A stretch of DNA of 64,000 nt from Candidatus Poribacteria bacterium (GCA_965116815.1 OZ220722.1:2293941-2357940); one strand, 5' to 3'; positions 1,776 through 62,521 are shown, counted from the stretch's first letter. The notes: generated by a model not told the origin, from the sequence alone. A program made the numbers and translations.

Positions 1776-3152
1776 ATGAATTATGAAGCAGCACTCGCCT
1801 ATATTGAATCATTTATTGACTATGAAAGAAGCCCTGATTTTTCACGGCAGGCGAGGTTCTATAATCTGGACAGGATCTCTTTATTATTAGAACTGCTTGA
1901 TAATCCACACGATAGATTGAAGGTTATCCACATCGCAGGAAGCAAGGGGAAAGGCTCCACGGCTGCACTCGTGGCATCGGTGCTTACGCATGCTGGCTAT
2001 AAAACAGGGCTGTTTACATCCCCGCATCTCATTACGCCGCGAGAACGGTGCTGTATAGATGGTGCGTTAATTTCAGAGGCAGACGTTGCGTTCTATATTG
2101 AAAAACTCAAGCCTGCGATAGAAACTGTCTCCGCTTCTGAATTCGGACGTGTTTCGTTTTTTGAAATATACACTGCGCTTGCTTTTTCCTATTTCGCCGA
2201 CAAGGCAACAGACTTTGCCGTTATTGAAGTTGGTTTGGGCGGTAGACTCGATGCAACAAACGTTGTCACGCCCATCACGACTGTTATTACACCGATCGGT
2301 TTGGAGCACACCGCGATATTAGGCGAAACTTATATTGAGATAGCAGGTGAGAAGGCGGAAATCATTAAACAGGAGTGTCCATTGGCACTCGCTCCGCAGC
2401 GTCCGGAGGCGCAAGCTGTATTTGAAAAAGTGGCAGGTGAACGCAAGGCACCGATTATTGAAGCAAAGGGTTTCGTTGGAAAAAATTCTCTTCGCCTCAT
2501 TCAGGATACCGATGGTGTCCCTGTAGCACAACAATTTGACGTGGAAACGGATTCGGAGCGTTATTCGCAGCTCACTATGCCACTTTTAGGGCACCATCAG
2601 TTCGTAAACGCGATAACGGCTATTGCAGCGATTGAATGCCTGAAACAGAAAGGATACATAATTCCAAAAACCAGCGTTCACGCGGGATTTAAGTATGTGA
2701 AATGGCGTGGGCGAATTCAGCGAATTATGTCCTCACCCATTATTATACTTGATGGTGCACATTCGCCGATCTCAATGGAAGCGTTATGTTGTACGATCCG
2801 TCAGAGTTTTCGTTACACTCGGGTGACCTTTATTGTTAGCCTAATGAAAGATAAAAATCTGACAGCAATTGGCGACGTTATCTCACAAATAGCAGATTCC
2901 GTGATTACGACACAAGTGCCGAATAACCCGCGTGTGATGCCAGCTGAAGAGATACAGTATACTTGGAAGGGTATATGCAAGCGGGTGGCTACGTGTTCGA
3001 TGCCGGAAAAAGCCATCAAGAAGGCGTTATCCGACGCATCACCAACAGATTTAATTTGTATTACAGGTTCGCTCTATCTTGTTGGTCAAGCACTTAAAAT
3101 ATTTAAATCGAATTTTTCAGCGAAAGATCGTATTGAAATTTCGTTTTCTTAG
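1776..3152 (+). CDS. folC: bifunctional folylpolyglutamate synthase / dihydrofolate synthase (Mur-ligase family)
   Basis: P-loop HIAGSKGKGST and the Mur ligase central and C-terminal domains. 458 aa. Confidence 0.85.
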   Translation: MNYEAALAYIESFIDYERSPDFSRQARFYNLDRISLLLELLDNPHDRLKVIHIAGSKGKGSTAALVASVLTHAGYKTGLFTSPHLITPRERCCIDGALISEADVAFYIEKLKPAIETVSASEFGRVSFFEIYTALAFSYFADKATDFAVIEVGLGGRLDATNVVTPITTVITPIGLEHTAILGETYIEIAGEKAEIIKQECPLALAPQRPEAQAVFEKVAGERKAPIIEAKGFVGKNSLRLIQDTDGVPVAQQFDVETDSERYSQLTMPLLGHHQFVNAITAIAAIECLKQKGYIIPKTSVHAGFKYVKWRGRIQRIMSSPIIILDGAHSPISMEALCCTIRQSFRYTRVTFIVSLMKDKNLTAIGDVISQIADSVITTQVPNNPRVMPAEEIQYTWKGICKRVATCSMPEKAIKKALSDASPTDLICITGSLYLVGQALKIFKSNFSAKDRIEISFS

Positions 3153-3167
3153 CGAAAGATCGTAAGT

Positions 3168-3294
3168 CCGTAATGAAATGGAGAGATTTTGCTTGGGTAT
3201 TTCTGCGGATTTCTCCAAATCTACGGAAAGGAACTTCAATGCTCAAACACACTTCATCGAACTGCAAGGAAAATTAAAAAAAGAGAGGTTTTTA
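3168..3294 (+). repeat. conserved ~125-nt upstream/leader element, copy U1 (CCGTAATGAAATGGAG...TTTTGCTTGGGT...GCAAGGAAAATTAAAAA), immediately 5' of the hppA ATG
   Basis: About 75% identical across its whole length to 10797-10900, which lies upstream of an unrelated gene. Confidence 0.5.
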
Positions 3295-8557: not shown

Positions 8558-9547
8558 ATGTCAACATTAAAAACAACAGACACTAAACCTATCATTTCCA
8601 ACGCGGATGCCAGTTTGATAGACATCGGCGATGGCATCGTCCGGCTTGAATTGCATAGCAAGTTGAACATCATCGGGGACGAAATGTTGGAGATGTTTGA
8701 TGCCGCGTTGGACGAGGTGGAAACGAATTATGCGGGGATGGTTGTTGCTACAGAAGCGAAGCATTTTTCCGTGGGACTCAACCTCATCCTTCTGTTGGAA
8801 CGTGCCAAGAACCAAAATTGGGATGCGATTTCGGGAACACTTCGCAAACTGCAAACCGTCTGCACAAGACTTCGGACAGTATCAAAACCGGTCGTTGCAG
8901 CGACAGCAGGTATGGCACTCGGCGGTGGGTGTGAACTCGCATTCGGTGCGGATGCGGTGCAAGCCTTCTCTGAAAGTTCCATCGGTCTCGTTGAACTCCG
9001 CGTGGGGCTTATTCCCGGTGGCGGTGGCACCAAGGAGATGGCATTCCGGTGCTTGCACGGACAAACACTGTCCGCCCCGATTCAGGATCTGTTTCCGTCC
9101 GTTAATAAGGCTTTTGATACAATTCGCGAATCCAAGATTTCACAAAACGCTGCAGAAGCAGTGGGACTTGGTTACCTTCGTCTAACTGATGCTATCTCAT
9201 CGAATCAGGAGACGCATATTGAAGATGCCAAGCAACTGGTCCTCTCAAAGCACAAAGCGGGGTATAATCCGCCTGAACCGCAACAGATATTTGTACTTGG
9301 TGAGGAGGGGATCGCTCGTCTCAATCTACAAACACATCTCCTTCGGCAAGCGGATGCTATTGATGACTATACGCAGCATCTCGCCAATCAATTGGCTTAC
9401 GTCCTCTGTGGCGGCGCACTTTCGGCTCCGCAATTTGTCCCCGAACAGTATCTACTTGACTTGGAACATGAAGTCTTCCTCAGCCTTTGTGGACGACAGG
9501 AAACGCATGCGAGGATAGAAGCAACGCTCCAAAAGGGTAAAAAGTAA
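8558..9547 (+). CDS. enoyl-CoA hydratase/isomerase (crotonase-fold) family protein
   Basis: Oxyanion-hole region ATAGMALGGGCELAF with the crotonase fold. Its stop overlaps the next start (TAATG), which suggests translational coupling to the thiolase. Confidence 0.7.
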   Translation: MSTLKTTDTKPIISNADASLIDIGDGIVRLELHSKLNIIGDEMLEMFDAALDEVETNYAGMVVATEAKHFSVGLNLILLLERAKNQNWDAISGTLRKLQTVCTRLRTVSKPVVAATAGMALGGGCELAFGADAVQAFSESSIGLVELRVGLIPGGGGTKEMAFRCLHGQTLSAPIQDLFPSVNKAFDTIRESKISQNAAEAVGLGYLRLTDAISSNQETHIEDAKQLVLSKHKAGYNPPEPQQIFVLGEEGIARLNLQTHLLRQADAIDDYTQHLANQLAYVLCGGALSAPQFVPEQYLLDLEHEVFLSLCGRQETHARIEATLQKGKK

Positions 9548-10734: not shown

Positions 10735-10796
10735 AAAAAAGGAGACGGTGTTCCTCCGCTTCCGCCACACCCGCGAAGTTTTAATGCGCGCATAGC

Positions 10797-10900
10797 CCGT
10801 AATGAAATGGAGGGTTTTTGCTTGGGTGTTTTTTTAGATAGACGGGGAGGAACGTCAAAGATCAAATCCACTTCAACAAACCGCAAGGGAAATTAAAAAT
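10797..10900 (+). repeat. conserved upstream/leader element, copy U2, immediately 5' of the lactonase ATG
   Basis: Aligns with 3168-3294 (CCGTAATGAAATGGAGGGTTTTTGCTTGGGTG...GCAAGGGAAATTAAAAAT). Confidence 0.5.
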
Positions 10901-11917
10901 ATGCAAACTCATGTCTATCTCTCCATAGCAGGAGAAAACAGAATCGCCATTTACACGTATGATGCCTCTAATGGCGGCATCGAACTTCAGGAAAACATCA
11001 ACGTTACGGGTTCTCCAGGTCCCTTAGCACTCTCACCGTGTGGTAACTACTTGTATGCTGGTCTACGCTCCAGTCGCGAAATCGCAAGTTTCCGTATTGA
11101 CGAAGAGACAAAACACCTCTCACACTTGCGGACAGTCCAGTTAGACGCGGATACGTGTTATATTGCGCCAGACAAAACCGGTAATTTCCTGCTTTCCGCC
11201 TATTACGGTGCTGGCAAAGTTACTGTACATACAATCGGCGACGATAAAACCGTTCAAGGTGAACCGCTTCAGACCGTCGAAACCGATATACACGCCCACT
11301 GTGTCGAAACAGATGCCTCAAACCGATTTGCTTTTGTGCCACACACTGTCCCTCGAAACGCTATCTACCAGTTCCATTTTAACGAGGATACAGGCGTACT
11401 TACGCAAAACCCTGTAGGAAATCTCAATCCGGGTGCACCGATTGGACCCCGGCATTTCTGCTTTCATCCGAACAAACCGGTCCTCTATTTTTCAAATGAA
11501 CAGGGATCAAGTGTCTCCGCATACACCCTTCAGGAAGGAGGAGACCACCCCGGAATCTTAGTAGACTTACAGGACGATCTCTCTACGCTCCCCGCAGATT
11601 TTGATGCAGATAATACTTGTGCGCAGATTCACATCGACCCACAAGGAACGTTTCTCTACGTCTCTAATCGCGGGCACGACAGCATCGCAGGATTCGCAAT
11701 TGACGAGGACAGCGGCAAATTAAGTGCTGTCGGACATCAACTGACCGAGCCGACACCACGCGTTTTTAATATCGACGGAACTGGCAATTATCTCTTTGTC
11801 GGTGGTCAGGGTTCAGGACAACTCGCTACCTACCGCATCAATCGGGAAAGTGGCGCGTTGTCTCCTCTCACCACCTATGCTGTTGGCGAAAACCCTATGT
11901 GGGTGCTTTTTGTATAG
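10901..11917 (+). CDS. 7-bladed beta-propeller lactonase (6-phosphogluconolactonase / YbhE-Pgl-like)
   Basis: Lactonase-family pattern: repeated ...GxxPRHF.F.P.G..LYV.NE.., and YVSNRGHDSIAGFAID. Confidence 0.6.
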   Translation: MQTHVYLSIAGENRIAIYTYDASNGGIELQENINVTGSPGPLALSPCGNYLYAGLRSSREIASFRIDEETKHLSHLRTVQLDADTCYIAPDKTGNFLLSAYYGAGKVTVHTIGDDKTVQGEPLQTVETDIHAHCVETDASNRFAFVPHTVPRNAIYQFHFNEDTGVLTQNPVGNLNPGAPIGPRHFCFHPNKPVLYFSNEQGSSVSAYTLQEGGDHPGILVDLQDDLSTLPADFDADNTCAQIHIDPQGTFLYVSNRGHDSIAGFAIDEDSGKLSAVGHQLTEPTPRVFNIDGTGNYLFVGGQGSGQLATYRINRESGALSPLTTYAVGENPMWVLFV

Positions 11918-19698: not shown

Positions 19699-19874
19699 TA
19701 GCGGAGGTCTGCTGAATTAAGTTTTTTTGACATCGTTCTTTAAATGTGTTATACTTAAAGAGGAAATATAATGCTTTCAGCATGGCCGTGAAACTTACTA
19801 AAACGGCGTGCGTAATTAACATCTAAATAGATTACCCAAAAAAGGCGTTGAAGGGGAGGAGTAAGTCGTCTGGG

Positions 19875-20125
19875 CTTGCGAGAGATGGAGACTCATCGGC
19901 TGAAAGGTCTCCTCAAGTTTCCACGACTGAAGGTCGCCCCGGAGCTGCTCATCTGAACAACTGTAGCAATAAGTAAGGTGAGTCGGTGTGATGCCCGTTA
20001 TCGCATCCCAAAGAGTGCTCTTTCTCGGTAAATGAAAATGAGAAAGGGAATTGGAGTGGTACCACGGTAAGGTCAGTGCAAATGTCCTTCTCGTCTCCAT
20101 GTTTGGAACGAGAAGGTTTTTTAAT
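19875..20125 (+). ncRNA. candidate T-box riboswitch leader (Leu specifier CUC?) with an intrinsic terminator, upstream of ilvB-ilvN-ilvC
   Basis: The boxes occur in the canonical order. AGAGA (AG box) is at about 19881. GCUGA (GNUGA box) is at about 19899. CUCA lies 3' of the distal hairpin at about 19912. CCGUUA (F box) is at about 19995. AAUUGGAGUGGUACCACGG, at about 20049-20067, matches the T-box consensus AAUUAGGGUGGUACCGCGG at 16 of 19 positions. The terminator CCTTCTCGT-loop-ACGAGAAGG + T6 is at about 20086-20122. Confidence 0.5.
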
Positions 20126-20175
20126 TTCAACGACTCCCGTAGGGACGATCCCTACAATTCATGAGGAAAATTGGC

Positions 20176-21852
20176 ATGGAACTTTCAGGAGCGCAAATCC
20201 TTGTTGACAGTCTCAAGCGGGAAGGTGTCGAATATATCTTCGGTGTGAACGGTGGCGCGGCGATGCCGATTTTCGATGCCCTCTACAGTGAGACCGAGGT
20301 TAAATTGATACCGATGCGGCATGAACAAGGGGCTTCCCACGCCGCTGATGGCTACGCACGTGCCACTGGGGATGTCGGCGTTGCGCTCGCAACTTCCGGT
20401 CCCGGCGCAACGAATCTTGTCACTGGCATCGCAACCGCTTATATGGATTCGATTCCGATGGTTGCGATTACTGGACAGGTTTTCACCCATTATATCGGTA
20501 GCGATGCCTTCCAAGAGTGTGATGTTATCGGCGTAACACGTCCGATCTGTAAACATAGTTACCTTATCACAAGTTGCGATGAGGTAGCAGATGTCGTCGC
20601 TGAAGCGTTTCACATCGCGAAGACCGGAAAACCCGGTCCCGTAATTATTGACATTGCCAAAGACGCGCAGATTCACGAAGCACTGTTTCAATATCCAGAA
20701 ACAGTTGACATCCGTAGTTACAAGCCGCAAGTTCATGGTGATCCAGCACAAATTGCAAAGGCAGCAGCACTGATTAAAGAAGCGAAACGCCCCATGCTTT
20801 ATGCCGGTGGTGGTGTTGTACTCGCCAATGCCAGTGAGGAGCTGCGGCAACTCACTCTCAAAACCCAGATTCCGATTACTGTTACATTAATGGGACTCGG
20901 CGCATTTCCCGAAACGCATCCTTTAGCGATGGAAATGCCCGGAATGCACGGTTCTTGTTGCGCTAATTACGCTTTTACCGACGCTGATCTCGTTATCGCT
21001 ATTGGCGCAAGGTTCGATGACCGCGTTACGGGTGATCTCAGTAAATTCGCACCGAACGCGAAGAAAATCCACATCGATATCGACGCGTCCTGTATTGGAA
21101 AAAATGTACCGGTGGATGTTCCGATCGTAGGTGATGCGAAGAGTGTTCTGACAGAACTGAATAAACAGGTTGAGACAGCAGACATTGACCCATGGCGCGA
21201 CCAGATTCAGGAATGGAAGCAGAAGTACCCGTTTGAGTATGAGCAGAAAGCCGATAAGGTAATGCCGCAATATGTCATTGAGCAGATTTATGAGCATTAC
21301 AGCGATGCCATTGTCGTTGCGGATGTCGGACAGCACCAGATGTGGGCGGCACAATACTTCAAATTCACCGAACCGCGGCAGTGGCTCAACTCCGGCGGTC
21401 TCGGCACGATGGGATTCAGCCTCCCCGCCGCAATCGGTGCGCAGCTCGGATGTCCGGACAAAACCGTTGTCAACATCAACGGAGACGGCTCCTATATCAT
21501 GACGATCCAAGAATTGGTGCCAGCGATTACGATGAAACTGCCGATTAAAGTTTTCATCATCAACAACATGTACCTGGGGATGGTGCGCCAGTGGCAGGAA
21601 TTGTTCCACGGCAAACGCTACTCTGCTGTCGATTACCACGATAATCCGGATTTCGCCTTGCTCGCACAGGCATTCGGTGCCACAGGGCTGCGGGTTGAAC
21701 ACCCAGACGAGGTCGAACCCGCATTACAGAAGGCGAAAGGGATTACCGATGGTCCTGTGGTTATTGATTTCATCGTTGATGAAGAGGAGAATGTGTTCCC
21801 AATGGTGCCAGCGGGTGCTGGACTTGGAGATGTTATCCGCGGGCTATCCTAA
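20176..21852 (+). CDS. ilvB: acetolactate synthase large subunit (biosynthetic, TPP/FAD-dependent)
   Basis: Full-length AHAS large subunit (GPGATNLVTGIATAYMDSIPMV, TPP-binding GDGSY...NN). The start is set at MELSGAQ behind a GAGG RBS. The ORF-track ATG at 20161 is an alternative. Confidence 0.92.
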   Translation: MELSGAQILVDSLKREGVEYIFGVNGGAAMPIFDALYSETEVKLIPMRHEQGASHAADGYARATGDVGVALATSGPGATNLVTGIATAYMDSIPMVAITGQVFTHYIGSDAFQECDVIGVTRPICKHSYLITSCDEVADVVAEAFHIAKTGKPGPVIIDIAKDAQIHEALFQYPETVDIRSYKPQVHGDPAQIAKAAALIKEAKRPMLYAGGGVVLANASEELRQLTLKTQIPITVTLMGLGAFPETHPLAMEMPGMHGSCCANYAFTDADLVIAIGARFDDRVTGDLSKFAPNAKKIHIDIDASCIGKNVPVDVPIVGDAKSVLTELNKQVETADIDPWRDQIQEWKQKYPFEYEQKADKVMPQYVIEQIYEHYSDAIVVADVGQHQMWAAQYFKFTEPRQWLNSGGLGTMGFSLPAAIGAQLGCPDKTVVNINGDGSYIMTIQELVPAITMKLPIKVFIINNMYLGMVRQWQELFHGKRYSAVDYHDNPDFALLAQAFGATGLRVEHPDEVEPALQKAKGITDGPVVIDFIVDEEENVFPMVPAGAGLGDVIRGLS

Positions 21853-21864
21853 TGATTTTAAGGG

Positions 21865-22040
21865 TCGTCAGTTATCGGTTATCAGTTACAAGAGGGTACC
21901 GTTAAACGAGGGGAAACACCCTATCAAAAACACCTCTTAACCGATGACCGAAAGGTTTTTCGGAGAAAAACCGAACCGATAACCGATAACCATAAAACCG
22001 ACAACTGAAAGCCTGCGCAGCAGGCGAACTGAAAACTAAA
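21865..22040. repeat. MITE/REP-like palindromic repeat, copy E2, inserted between ilvB and ilvN. It contains GTCAGTTATCGGTTATCAGTTACAAGAGGGT, the hairpin GGTTTTTCGGAGAAAAACC, the inverted partner AACCGATAACCGATAACC and the hairpin GCCTGCGCAGCAGGC.
   Basis: Same core and hairpin as E1 and E3. It makes a 193-nt spacer between genes that are normally adjacent. Confidence 0.6.
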
Positions 22041-30860: not shown

Positions 30861-30943
30861 GTTATAAGTTGTCAGTTATCGGTTGTCAGTTAAGAGCGTG
30901 TTCATTTACGGATAACCTCTTGTAACTGAAAACTGAAAACTAA
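30861..30943. repeat. MITE/REP-like palindromic repeat, copy E3 (GTTGTCAGTTATCGGTTGTCAGTTAAGAGCGTG ... ACCTCTTGTAACTGAAAACTGAAAAC)
   Basis: Same core as E1 and E2. It lies in the divergent region between the 377-aa gene and the PhyH gene. Confidence 0.55.
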
Positions 30944-46824: not shown

Positions 46825-47421
46825 TTAGAGAACATCATACGTAGGAGCGTTCTCTCCACTGTACTTCAGATTAGCACCTTTTTTGTACCACCCGACATCG
46901 TCTTCGAGCCAATCATCAATTTCATCATCATGTAAAGGCACTTCACGTAAAAGTGCAGATCTAGCAACTTTCTCATAAACGAGCACGCTCTCATGCGTAG
47001 TGGTGAAACCTCGATTGTCACGACTTCCTTTTAGATTAAGAACTGCTGCAAGGCATACAATAAACGTATCAGCCCCAAATATTTCGTCCATGATCATTCG
47101 CAAATGATGCTGTTCGTGATGGTCAATAGAAACGAAAATAACGCCATCATCGGAAAGCAATTCGCGCAGCAAATGCAGGCGCGGCCACATCATGCAAAGC
47201 CATTTGTCATGGAGTTCAAGGTCTTCACCATCAACCGGACTGTTTTGAGCAAACCACGCTTGCATCAGCGGGCTATTCACTCGGTCATTGTACACCCAAG
47301 CCTGACTGCCTGTATTATATGGCGGATCAATGTAGATGCACTTGATCTTGCCAGCGTATTTTGGGAGAAGTGCCTTTAGTGCATGTAGGTTGTCGCCGTG
47401 GATAATGAGGTTATCATTCAA
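46825..47421 (-). pseudogene. N6-adenine/N4-cytosine DNA methyltransferase fragment (Type III Mod / beta-class-like), C-terminally truncated
   Basis: DNLHALKAL...IKCIYIDPPYNTG (motif IV DPPY) and HESVLVYEK. It stops after 198 aa, with no TRD or motif I. It begins with TTG directly after a poly-C tract. Confidence 0.7.
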
Positions 47422-49100: not shown

Positions 49101-49251
49101 GTTGTCAGTGAGTAAGTCGGGAAGCGGAGTTCCCTCCTACCAAGAGGGTTATCAGTTGTCGGTAAGTGTCGGGAAGCGGAGTTCCCTCCTACATTGGCTT
49201 TCAGCAGTCACCGGAGTTCCTGCGGAGTCGGGAATCGGAGTTCCCTCCTAC
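49101..49251. repeat. short tandem array: the 25-nt unit GTCGGGAAGCGGAGTTCCCTCCTAC occurs three times (third copy carries a T substitution at unit position 9) with 27- and 34-nt spacers that themselves carry GTTGTCAGT / GTTATCAGTTGTCGG motifs
   Basis: Seen directly. The unit has an internal GGGAA...TTCCC palindrome. The spacers resemble each other and the MITE-family core, so this is a tandem repeat rather than CRISPR. Confidence 0.7.
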
Positions 49252-49483
49252 AGCTCAAAATTGTAAAATTCGCCATATTTACACTTTCTTTGGATACGAG
49301 CCTCCGCCCTGTTACGGAGATTTGAAACCCTATTTCTATAAAAATCGTTTTATTAATGGGGATAGTGTATTAAAAATAGTTAGGATTTACGCAGCGCCCT
49401 TTGCTGGCGAGGTTTGAAACCTCGCCAGCGGCGTGCGGGCCATAGGTACTCATCAGTTTGCGTCAGTTTGCGTAAAGAAAATT

Positions 49484-61507: not shown

Positions 61508-62521
61508 ATGAAAAATAGATTGATCCTTTCCTGCTTTTTTTATTTTGCATCTGTCCTCAGTCTTCTGCTCTGCTTCGGTTGTGGAGACACCGAGGACGAG
61601 CAGGAAGTCATCAACCCTACCAACAATACGTTCCTCGACGCACCTGATGAACAACCCCTACGACCTGCTGAACAACTGCCACAGTTGACAGCCGAAGACC
61701 GGGAAAAGTTAGAAGAGGCTAAACAATGGCTACACTTGACAGCCGAAGCCTGGAGAAAGTTAGAAGCCGAAGATTGGGAAAAGTTAAAAGGCGAAGATTG
61801 GGTCAGGTTGACAGACGCGGAAGTTAAAGAACTCATGAACCTTGAGGTTCCGAAAGACTGGGCGCTTGAGGCGGCAGACCCAGCACTACGCGAAAAACAT
61901 CGCGAAGCTGCGCTCTTCCAGCAGTTCGGAGACATTCCACAGGTTCGCTATAAGGTAGAGTTTGATCGACATTATTTGAAAAAGCGAGGTTTCACTATAA
62001 CTGAAACACCTGAAATTGCTAAGCAATTCGTTGGGTATTACGCAGCACACTACTTTCTTTTTCCGACTGAAGACCATAAGCGTTTGCTTGAAGACGCAAT
62101 AAATCAGTTAAAAGCTGTAATAGAACGTGGAGAACGCAGTCTCGAAATAGAGGAACTTCGCCGCTTAGATCAACTCAGAATAGAAGACCCCGAAGCTTGG
62201 GTAAAAAGCATGCGTGCCTTTTTTATTGAAAAATATGGCAACACGCCGGGAGCTAACACGATTATCGAATTTTTGAGAAAATTGGAACTGGATTTACCAA
62301 GAGCAGACCAGGAATGCCGTTCCTATCTTACGGCATACAATGCGCTCTATACTGCCTTTAAAATCCGCTCAACCTATGAATACGAATATTATGCTATGTT
62401 TGAAGCATCGGACCAGCTCCGGCCTATTGTAGCGGGGGTCCCGCTACGCATCCTCGAAAAATATCGAGAGGCGAGAGCAGAAGAGATCTCATTCTATGAT
62501 ATAGATTGGGACGGTGAGTAA
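61508..62521 (+). CDS. hypothetical lipoprotein with acidic EDWEKL-type repeats
   Basis: Lipobox LLLCFGCG. Repeats LTAEDREKLEE / EAWRKLEAEDWEKLKGEDWVRL. Confidence 0.4.
   Translation: MKNRLILSCFFYFASVLSLLLCFGCGDTEDEQEVINPTNNTFLDAPDEQPLRPAEQLPQLTAEDREKLEEAKQWLHLTAEAWRKLEAEDWEKLKGEDWVRLTDAEVKELMNLEVPKDWALEAADPALREKHREAALFQQFGDIPQVRYKVEFDRHYLKKRGFTITETPEIAKQFVGYYAAHYFLFPTEDHKRLLEDAINQLKAVIERGERSLEIEELRRLDQLRIEDPEAWVKSMRAFFIEKYGNTPGANTIIEFLRKLELDLPRADQECRSYLTAYNALYTAFKIRSTYEYEYYAMFEASDQLRPIVAGVPLRILEKYREARAEEISFYDIDWDGE

Follow-up and report, generated by a model that had tools for sequence, protein, structure and literature searches.

Two copies of a shared leader element

In the 64,000-nucleotide stretch of Candidatus Poribacteria DNA analyzed here (GCA_965116815.1, OZ220722.1:2293941-2357940; hereafter the window), two unrelated genes, i.e., hppA, which encodes an H+-PPase, and a lactonase gene, are preceded by copies of the same leader element, which are separated by 7.6 kb. 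Copy 1 (positions 3161 to 3281) and copy 2 (10790 to 10900) are identical at 90 of 110 aligned positions (82%) in a global alignment with one indel of about 10 nt, and the exact 16-mer CCGTAATGAAATGGAG occurs within the window only at 3168 and 10797. A repeat search of the window returned a 38-nt block common to both copies with 89% identity, and the presence of two aligned leader sequences at these places, as reported in a preliminary description of the window, is thereby confirmed. A profile of the family introduced below scored the two copies with E values of 8e-24 and 3e-27 and detected no third copy in the 64-kb window.

Copy 2 ends 1 nt 5' of the ATG of the lactonase gene (10901), and copy 1 ends 13 to 15 nt 5' of the ATG of hppA (3295), with the gene's own Shine-Dalgarno (SD) sequence GAGAGG (3283 to 3288, followed by 6 nt and the ATG) in between. 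The proposal that each copy lies close to an ATG and supplies the ribosome binding site (RBS) therefore holds for the distances, but the RBS behind copy 1 is that of hppA itself. The 828-amino-acid open reading frame (ORF) that extends hppA in the ORF track starts at ATG 3178, inside the hairpin loop of copy 1, and when the protein is translated from 3295, its H_PPase domain of Pfam starts at residue 51, which bears out the suspicion that the element gives rise to a spurious N-terminal extension.

On its 5' side, copy 1 is bordered by a direct repeat. The 14-mer AGCGAAAGATCGTA occurs at 3119 to 3132 and again at 3151 to 3164 (start-to-start distance of 32 nt), and its second occurrence includes the last two bases (AG) of the stop codon TAG of folC (3150 to 3152), much as had been noted before, although the gap is 18 nt instead of 19 nt. 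The 14-mer is part of the direct repeat TTTYTYAGCGAAAGATCGTA of about 20 nt, and the same arrangement is found at folC in the relative L005. Unit 1 (3119 to 3150, + strand), with the first 14-mer, lies inside the 3' end of folC, aligns with 3145 to 3164, and has no hairpin, and the second 14-mer (3151 to 3164, + strand) forms the 5' flank of copy 1 and ends in the GTA of its GTAAG tag (family flank consensus aAAAccGTAG). In this repeat, the 5' flank of the element has been duplicated locally and in tandem. Its earlier interpretation as a footprint of an insertion or recombination event had to be abandoned, since the duplication is shared with L005 and no target site duplication (TSD) was found over 129 copies of the family.

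A large family in Poribacteria

One genome per species was scanned with the 20-base pattern GTAATGAAATGGAG-N2-5-TTTTGC, which yielded at least 118 stretches from about 35 assemblies, nearly all of them Poribacteria, scattered around the chromosomes; among the matches listed, up to 13 loci are spread across a single 5.6-Mb chromosome. Full elements are also present in four stretches designated "uncultured bacterium" (L085, L088, L096, and L101), and the few pattern matches in other taxa come without the rest of the element. The pattern scan of the JGI metagenome collection gave 35 stretches, which are located on genomic contigs. A family profile, built from 83 copies and searched with nhmmer against 1.11 Mb, found 219 copies, 131 of which are full length. 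About 100 extra matches in approximately 0.94 Mb of flanking DNA, together with the two copies per 64-kb window, suggest a copy number on the order of 10^2 per genome, with the reservation that flanking DNA is a biased sample. Both window copies thus firmly belong to a large, uncatalogued family of Poribacteria.

With just two copies in the 64-kb window, 7.6 kb apart, chance or a purely local duplication between two neighboring intergenic regions could account for the resemblance, and the preliminary description had named the existence of only two copies, their absence from relatives, and a lack of conserved structure as signs of such an event. Instead, there are hundreds of copies in about 35 assemblies, both sites are conserved in L005, and a hairpin is maintained across the family (see below), which leaves this explanation with a negligible probability. 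The search for further copies and the tally of downstream genes that had been proposed at the same time resulted in 219 profile matches and 124 downstream Pfam families.

The closest homologues of the lactonase are from Candidatus Poribacteria (57 to 91% identity), and the syntenic loci of six relatives (L001 to L006) were compared. A look-up of the exact lactonase sequence of the window retrieved no record. L005 (91% protein identity) has a copy at each of the two sites, together with the folC direct repeat, and no recognizable copy was found at either site in L001, L002, L003, L004, and L006. Genomes that are about 90% identical in protein hence differ in the presence of the element at orthologous sites. 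An absence throughout a lineage is not supported: a genome of the L003 type, which has no copies at hppA and the lactonase gene, appears to carry one elsewhere (L067, OZ241845.1), and presence or absence therefore looks locus-specific. Upstream of hppA, relatives without the element share only the native A-rich/SD stretch. A 16-nt patch from the middle of the lactonase copy is common to L001 and L006 (z = 2.8; reached by 11 of 500 shuffles), which weakly hints at decay rather than insertion.

Anatomy and variants of the element

From 5' to 3', the element consists of a weak A-rich flank, an RTAG tag, a 21-nt hairpin (P1), an optional G/U-rich module, a locus-specific middle of about 30 to 40 nt, a near-invariant block C, a spacer, and the start codon, with the consensus aAAAccGTAG-CCC-GTAATGAAATGGA-GGG-GTTTTTGCTTGGGtGTTTCttCAGATaTACGGAAAGG-[variable]-ccGAACCGCAAGG-(A/T)AAAATTAAAAA-ATG. 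The invariant 3' block reads (G)AACCGCAAGG and is followed by a 12-nt A/U-rich spacer and the start codon. GTAG is the 5' tag in about half of 152 copies, and ATAG, CAAG, and TAAG account for most of the remainder; the final G of the tag is the first base of the P1 stem. The ends of the element appear to resemble the h44-h45 linker of the Escherichia coli 16S rRNA (CAAGGUAA and AACCGUAG).

In copy 1, whose parts all lie on the + strand, P1 (3165 to 3187) is composed of AGTCC, the loop GTAATGAAATGGA, and GAGAT and is weakened by a G-to-A change, with three of five stem positions paired. It is followed by the G/U-rich module TTTGCTTGGGTATTTCTGCGGATTTCTCC (3188 to 3219), which has a 10-nt internal duplication relative to copy 2, the middle (3220 to 3257), which is of the kind that is variable between loci and conserved among orthologues, block C CGAACTGCAAGG (3258 to 3269), and the A/U-rich 12-nt tail AAAATTAAAAAA (3270 to 3281) ahead of the SD sequence and ATG of hppA. 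Copy 2, likewise on the + strand, begins with a 5' flank that contains the CAT of a CATAG tag (10788 to 10793), and all five stem positions of its P1 pair (10794 to 10816; AGCCC, GTAATGAAATGGA, and GGGTT). The module TTTGCTTGGGTGTTTTTTTAGAT (10817 to 10839) comes next, then a middle (10840 to 10876) with the 16-nt patch ACGTCAAAGATCAAAT that also occurs upstream of the lactonase gene in relatives without the rest of the element, block C CAAACCGCAAGG (10877 to 10888), and the 12-nt A/U-rich spacer GAAATTAAAAAT, which places the lactonase ATG at the canonical distance of 12 nt (10889 to 10903, including the ATG).

Long forms of the element measure about 115 nt and short forms about 90 nt. The short form, represented by 26 of 156 copies, is missing about 24 nt (GTTTTTGCTTGGGTGTTTCTTCA) that correspond to the G/U-rich module, and in the type-II form the first hairpin is GCCUGC-AACAACGGC-GCAGGC and the module is absent from all copies; both forms keep everything else, including the 12-nt spacing. 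The module also tolerates tandem expansion and nested insertions. In long forms, G-blocks and C-blocks are expanded in tandem, or there are nested insertions directly 3' of TTTTTGC; insertions between P1 and the tail range from 0 to 130 nt. Tail duplications are seen in some copies, the last unit of which retains a spacing of 11 to 12 nt to the start codon, and tandem arrays and partial copies occur at some loci.

Two or three tandem elements precede a single gene in L089 (846 to 1250) and also in L035, L056, L113, and L111; in L056, the ATG after the first tail directly adjoins the TAG of the next element's GTAG. The nested insertions found directly 3' of TTTTTGC in L018, L021, L083, L086, and L118 have lengths of about 35 to 130 nt, begin with GAATCAACGC, and contain palindromes of their own; they form a small insertion family of their own, with a single target site in the element.

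The G/U-rich module invites comparison with sigma-54 promoters, because TGGAGGGGTTTTTGCT resembles TGGCACG-N4-TTGCW with its GG-N10-GC spacing. This spacing is present in 90 of 116 pattern-bearing copies, and conservation extends to the TTGC and to the T that precedes GG. However, the spacer is N9 in 20 copies (both window copies and 18 others) and N11 in 6, and the module is absent from the 26 short and all type-II copies, which are otherwise intact down to the 12-nt spacing. Moreover, the GG lies within the P1 loop, the spacer's first G takes part in the pairing of the P1 3' arm, and the downstream genes are a broad housekeeping mix. Considering these features, a sigma-54 promoter is very improbable.

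A hairpin that folds on the sense strand

P1 comprises the first 21 nt after (R)TA, with the stem GCCC/GGGC and a conserved, irregular loop. Stem variants include GCUC/GAGC, GCGC/GCGC, GCAC/GUGC, GCCU/AGGC, and GUUC/GGAC. Across 64 distinct sequences, 24 cells are changed on both sides of the stem, compared with 7.9 ± 2.3 in shuffles (none of 500 reached the observed value) and with 3 to 10 in a control with slid partners. The pair types CG, UG, UA, GC, and AU are all represented, and the inner pair (UA in 55, CG in 7, and UG in 2 of the 64 sequences) is never unpaired. Type-II hairpins have the same 21-nt geometry, the noncanonical G.A and U.G of type I being replaced by G-C and C-G. On the + strand, 27 cells of the G.U type contrast with 6 of the A.C type, and the folded strand should therefore be the sense strand, most simply that of an mRNA.

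A number of further candidates were tried and rejected. A hairpin in the middle region (CGG-AA-AGGC...GCCU-GA-CCG) shows compensatory cases by eye, but its register shifts between subfamilies and it has neither thermodynamic nor consensus support. Long-range pairing of UUUUUGC with GCAAGGA leaves one-sided variants uncompensated. The same lack of compensation, and the absence of the U-rich module from short copies, speaks against a FourU- or ROSE-type RNA thermometer. A CsrA-type leader would find AUGGA in the type-I loop, but the type-II loop AACAACGGC has no GGA and the remainder of the element is retained. Finally, an upstream ORF or leader peptide that starts at the AUG of the P1 loop is incompatible with lengths of 89, 90, 91, 92, and 93 nt, which span all residues modulo 3, with type-II copies that have no AUG, and with conservation that shows no third-position pattern.

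None of the 4,227 families of Rfam 15 matched the element at the gathering score in the window and 18 loci, at an E value of ≤10 for the two window copies, or at an E value of ≤1 in 62 kb that contain many copies of all variants. The sole Rfam match of the window is a T-box leader (RF00230, 112.8 bits, E = 3.8e-24) at 19839 to 20101 on the + strand, upstream of the ORF at 20161 to 21852.

Position relative to genes and start codons

The nearest downstream ORF is co-oriented with the element in 158 cases and convergent in 27. When the spacing was counted to the starts of long ORFs, a start codon was found 11 to 13 nt after CCGCAAGG (CGCAAGG) in 88 of the 191 copies with a 3' end, and in 73 of them at exactly 12 nt; these 88 starts are ATG in 82 copies (93%), TTG in 4, and GTG in 2. 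Among the copies outside the search-pattern selection, 29 of 96 are located exactly 12 nt from a start. Copies with a longer gap often have an ordinary SD sequence (e.g., GAAGGAGG or GAGAGG) directly after the tail, as is the case at hppA. The upstream neighbor is in tandem in 114 cases and divergent in 32, near what any gene would show; in the divergent arrangement, the median gap of 170 nt is wide enough to accommodate an external promoter.

The 123 proteins encoded downstream form 79 clusters by homology, and 124 Pfam families were matched by 90 representatives, including PhyH, GFO/IDH/MocA, GT4, Pup ligase, Nuo/Mrp subunits, the enolase superfamily, ABC transporters, and H+-PPase. A functional theme is therefore not apparent, and a spread of the element by gene duplication is ruled out by the same numbers. 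The idea of a leader-type element common to unrelated genes, which had been derived from hppA and the lactonase gene, thus applies to the family as a whole.

Two element-free genes of the window, at 8558 and 9547, also have an AAGG and an A/T-rich spacer before the ATG (CTAAGGTAAATTGTTGAGATG, 12 nt, and AAAGGGTAAAAAGTAATG, respectively), so that the tail geometry may represent a more general poribacterial RBS style.

The fixed spacing could be explained equally well by a leaderless or near-leaderless promoter cassette, in which the tail (T/A)A(A/T)AAT would be a -10 box, followed by an A-rich discriminator of 6 to 7 nt and a transcription start at the first base of the ATG. For genes with an SD sequence of their own, such as hppA, the start would be located immediately 5' of that sequence, and the 90 nt farther upstream would have a regulatory role or serve as an UP region. 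The strict 12-nt AAGG-ATG distance places an ANNNT hexamer 6 to 7 nt before the ATG, the share of ATG among the starts is 93%, an SD such as GAAGGAGG or GAGAGG directly follows the tail of longer-gap copies, and element-free hppA upstream regions still have TAAAATAAAAAAGAGAGG at the same place. On the other hand, neither a -35-like hexamer at 16 to 18 nt nor a TGn is present, this stretch being variable between copies, and a scan of both window copies with the sigma-70 consensus gave no match. A cassette of this kind would also leave the covariation and the G.U bias of P1 unexplained, which require a single-stranded sense strand, most simply RNA, and therefore transcription through P1 from upstream. 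Furthermore, insertions of 0 to 130 nt between P1 and the tail would break a fixed activator-promoter geometry, and element-bearing genes are not enriched at divergent, i.e., operon-first, positions. We consider a leaderless promoter, although it is the main competitor of the leader interpretation given below, rather doubtful.

Selection and mobility

In 14 diverged orthologous pairs, the identity amounts to 0.64 at synonymous sites, 0.88 in block A, 0.85 in the middle, and 0.95 in block C, which shows, at the level of sequence comparison, purifying selection along the whole element. Since the middle differs between loci yet is conserved between orthologues, each copy is maintained in place from end to end. 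Orthologous copies, the middle included, are conserved well above synonymous sites, a pattern that would not arise if transposition alone were selected for. The portable cassette envisaged in the preliminary description is accordingly a common leader-type element, but one that belongs to an old family, found throughout the phylum and under purifying selection, rather than a recent acquisition of two genes.

The 129 copies mentioned above gave no indication of TSDs, with a longest common substring of the flanks of 5.61, compared with 5.22 in permuted pairs. Terminal inverted repeats (TIRs) were not seen when the consensus ends AAAACCGTAGCCC and CCGCAAGGAAAATTAAAAA were compared by eye; their similarity to each other (CCGYAG / CCGCAAG) is that of direct and not of inverted repeats. 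A cut-and-paste miniature inverted-repeat transposable element (MITE) was rejected on the basis of these two results. Neighboring copies are located on the same strand in 35 cases and on opposite strands in 10.

It is also conceivable, if unlikely, that the family is a selfish repeat akin to repetitive extragenic palindromes (REPs) or MITEs, whose P1 and RTAG would be recognized by a REP-associated tyrosine transposase (RAYT) or an IS200-like tyrosine transposase and whose occurrence upstream of genes would be due to a preferred target or to sites at which insertion is tolerated. REPs are units of 20 to 40 bp, often in inverted pairs, that mainly lie 3' of ORFs or between ORFs in a convergent or unidirectional arrangement (Di Nocera 2013, PMC3733652; Nunvar 2010, PMC2817692; Messing 2012, PMC3479197). 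The RTAG that immediately precedes the imperfect 21-nt palindrome corresponds to the architecture of GTAG-tagged REPs (PMC3733652, PMC2817692), and the two share a high copy number, an extragenic location, and plausible transcription and activity as an RNA hairpin. The dispersal of the family, its variable presence at orthologous sites among genomes that are about 90% identical in protein, and its tandem arrays, partial copies, and nested insertions would fit as well. However, the conserved unit is not a palindrome of 20 to 40 bp but an oriented stretch of 90 to 115 nt that ends at a start codon, the hairpin being only its first fifth, and neighboring units are mostly direct instead of inverted. 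Copies are found upstream of co-oriented ORFs at a fixed 12 nt and not downstream of or between convergent ORFs, GTAG itself is present in only about half of them, and the missing TSDs and TIRs as well as the conservation of orthologous copies above synonymous sites likewise argue against a repeat of this type. A REP/RAYT-like origin of P1 is possible, but the family as a whole departs from REPs in unit size, in the arrangement of neighboring copies, and in its position relative to ORFs.

Interpretation as an mRNA leader

The reading that we favor, with about even confidence, is that of a Poribacteria-specific, high-copy, sense-oriented leader family that acts in cis on the mRNA, either as a 5' untranslated region (UTR) or as an intercistronic leader. 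It provides the best fit to the sense-strand hairpin, the fixed geometry, the constraint over the whole length, the independence of operon position, the room for an external promoter, and a modest enrichment of -10-like hexamers. The latter are about 2.5-fold enriched where the transcription start would fall approximately 0 to 6 nt 5' of P1, and with such a start P1 would therefore be the 5'-terminal hairpin of the transcript. Within the mRNA, P1 may serve as a recognition hairpin or as a stabilizer that protects the 5' end, addressed by a putative shared trans-acting factor (a protein or the ribosome), and CCGCAAGG-N12-AUG may form a translation-initiation region of fixed geometry, with the weak, distant SD-like AAGG and an A-rich standby stretch. 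Many unrelated genes would in this way be given a common, possibly coregulated, level of translation or stability, and the locus-specific middle would tune each gene individually.

Several points weigh against a leader function. The enrichment of -10-like hexamers is modest and concerns about 12 to 19% of the copies, the AAGG-AUG distance of 12 nt is beyond the 5 to 10 nt that separate the SD sequences of other window genes from their starts (by eye), and the tail has the look of a -10 box, spaced as leaderless transcripts would require. With respect to structure, the suggestion of a small structured RNA survives for one short hairpin but not for a global fold: the RNAalifold analysis that had been recommended yielded -2.3 kcal/mol for 83 copies and, in the short forms, recovered P1 alone, and the z-scores of the minimum free energy are close to 0 (full element, -0.12; middle, -0.04; 5' part, -0.24). 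In addition, the copies were partly ascertained by a pattern that fixes the P1 loop, the ORF calls are crude, and the orthologous pairs are nonindependent.

A more far-reaching version of the leader interpretation, which is put forward tentatively, would be a phylum-specific "universal leader," in which the hairpin and CCGCAAGG-N12-AUG are read by a dedicated factor or by the ribosome and thereby exert one control over many mRNAs. Judging by the sampled density, possibly hundreds of mRNAs per genome would be concerned. Such a module would be a bacterial counterpart of a shared 5' leader or of a module resembling an internal ribosome entry site (IRES), with the middle providing the tuning of the single gene.

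Comparison with known systems

Putative mobile promoters are upstream sequences of 50 to 100 nt with at least 80% identity that precede nonhomologous genes within a genome, and their families have 2 to 93 members (Matus-Garcia, Nijveen & van Passel 2012, PMC3488235). The window copies (82% identity over 110 nt, upstream of hppA and the lactonase gene) and the wider family fit this operational definition as far as sequence is concerned. The differences are at least 219 copies in the 1.1 Mb sampled, from many species of a phylum, compared with 2 to 93 members, and the fixed 12-nt start spacing, the covarying sense hairpin, and the purifying selection. Operationally, the element would therefore qualify as a very large family of putative mobile promoters, which is set apart by its phylum-wide conservation, covarying hairpin, and fixed start spacing.

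The Correia elements of Neisseria and the enterobacterial ERIC/IRU sequences are dispersed intergenic repeats of about 100 to 150 nt that alter the expression or mRNA processing of their neighbors, have TIRs and TSDs, and occur in either orientation. The poribacterial element is likewise a dispersed repeat of about 100 nt, but it is without TIRs and TSDs and has predominantly one orientation. Riboswitches, ribosomal-protein leaders, and ompA-type 5' stabilizer hairpins serve one pathway or a few operons per genome. The element shares with these cis-regulatory leaders its location on the sense strand directly upstream of an ORF, the covarying hairpin, a conserved block close to the RBS, and conservation above the neutral level, and it differs from them in that it precedes many unrelated genes, only one small helix is supported, and a match in Rfam 15 is lacking.

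A search of the full-text literature found no published description of the element. A "Poribacteria-1" motif is reportedly part of the study of Weinberg et al. from 2017, in whose main text the word is absent, and an earlier description of the element is therefore possible.

If the leader interpretation holds true, a large fraction of the Poribacteria proteome would be under one cis-acting expression module. To our knowledge, the sharing of a leader at such a scale is undescribed for bacteria, and we know of no account of gene regulation in the uncultured, sponge-symbiotic Poribacteria. Whatever the mechanism, the ATG of the P1 loop can open a false frame and thus cause spurious N-terminal extensions in gene calls, and the position 12 nt after block C strongly predicts a true start codon. 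The element may furthermore be used as a lineage marker of Poribacteria in metagenomes and is a ready-made candidate for an expression cassette. It also exemplifies that dispersed-repeat families can be kept by purifying selection over their whole length and not by mobility alone.

Other repeats in the window

A second dispersed repeat is located at 1729 to 1774, 21864 to 21909, 21938 to 21983, and 30868 to 30941. It consists of runs of the heptamers AACTGAT, AACCGAT, and GTTATCG that flank a GGTTTTTC...GAAAAACC hairpin in direct and inverted copies, and a similar run follows the tail of the element in L018. Three 25-nt direct repeats GTCGGGAAGCGGAGTTCCCTCCTAC with spacings of 52 and 59 nt are present at 49116 to 49251, followed by the palindrome TTGCTGGCGAGGTTTGAAACCTCGCCAGC (approximately 49385 to 49432), whose family is also represented upstream of hppA in L001, where it is bounded by the inverted repeats AGGACTTACGCAA / TTGCGTAAGTCCT. 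Tandem repeats of 24 nt (four or more units with 61 to 82% identity) occur inside a coding region at 61667 to 61814. A C homopolymer of about 13 to 14 nt, just upstream of the ORF at 46825 to 47421 on the - strand and near its putative TTG start, looks like either a slippage or phase-variation tract or an assembly artifact.
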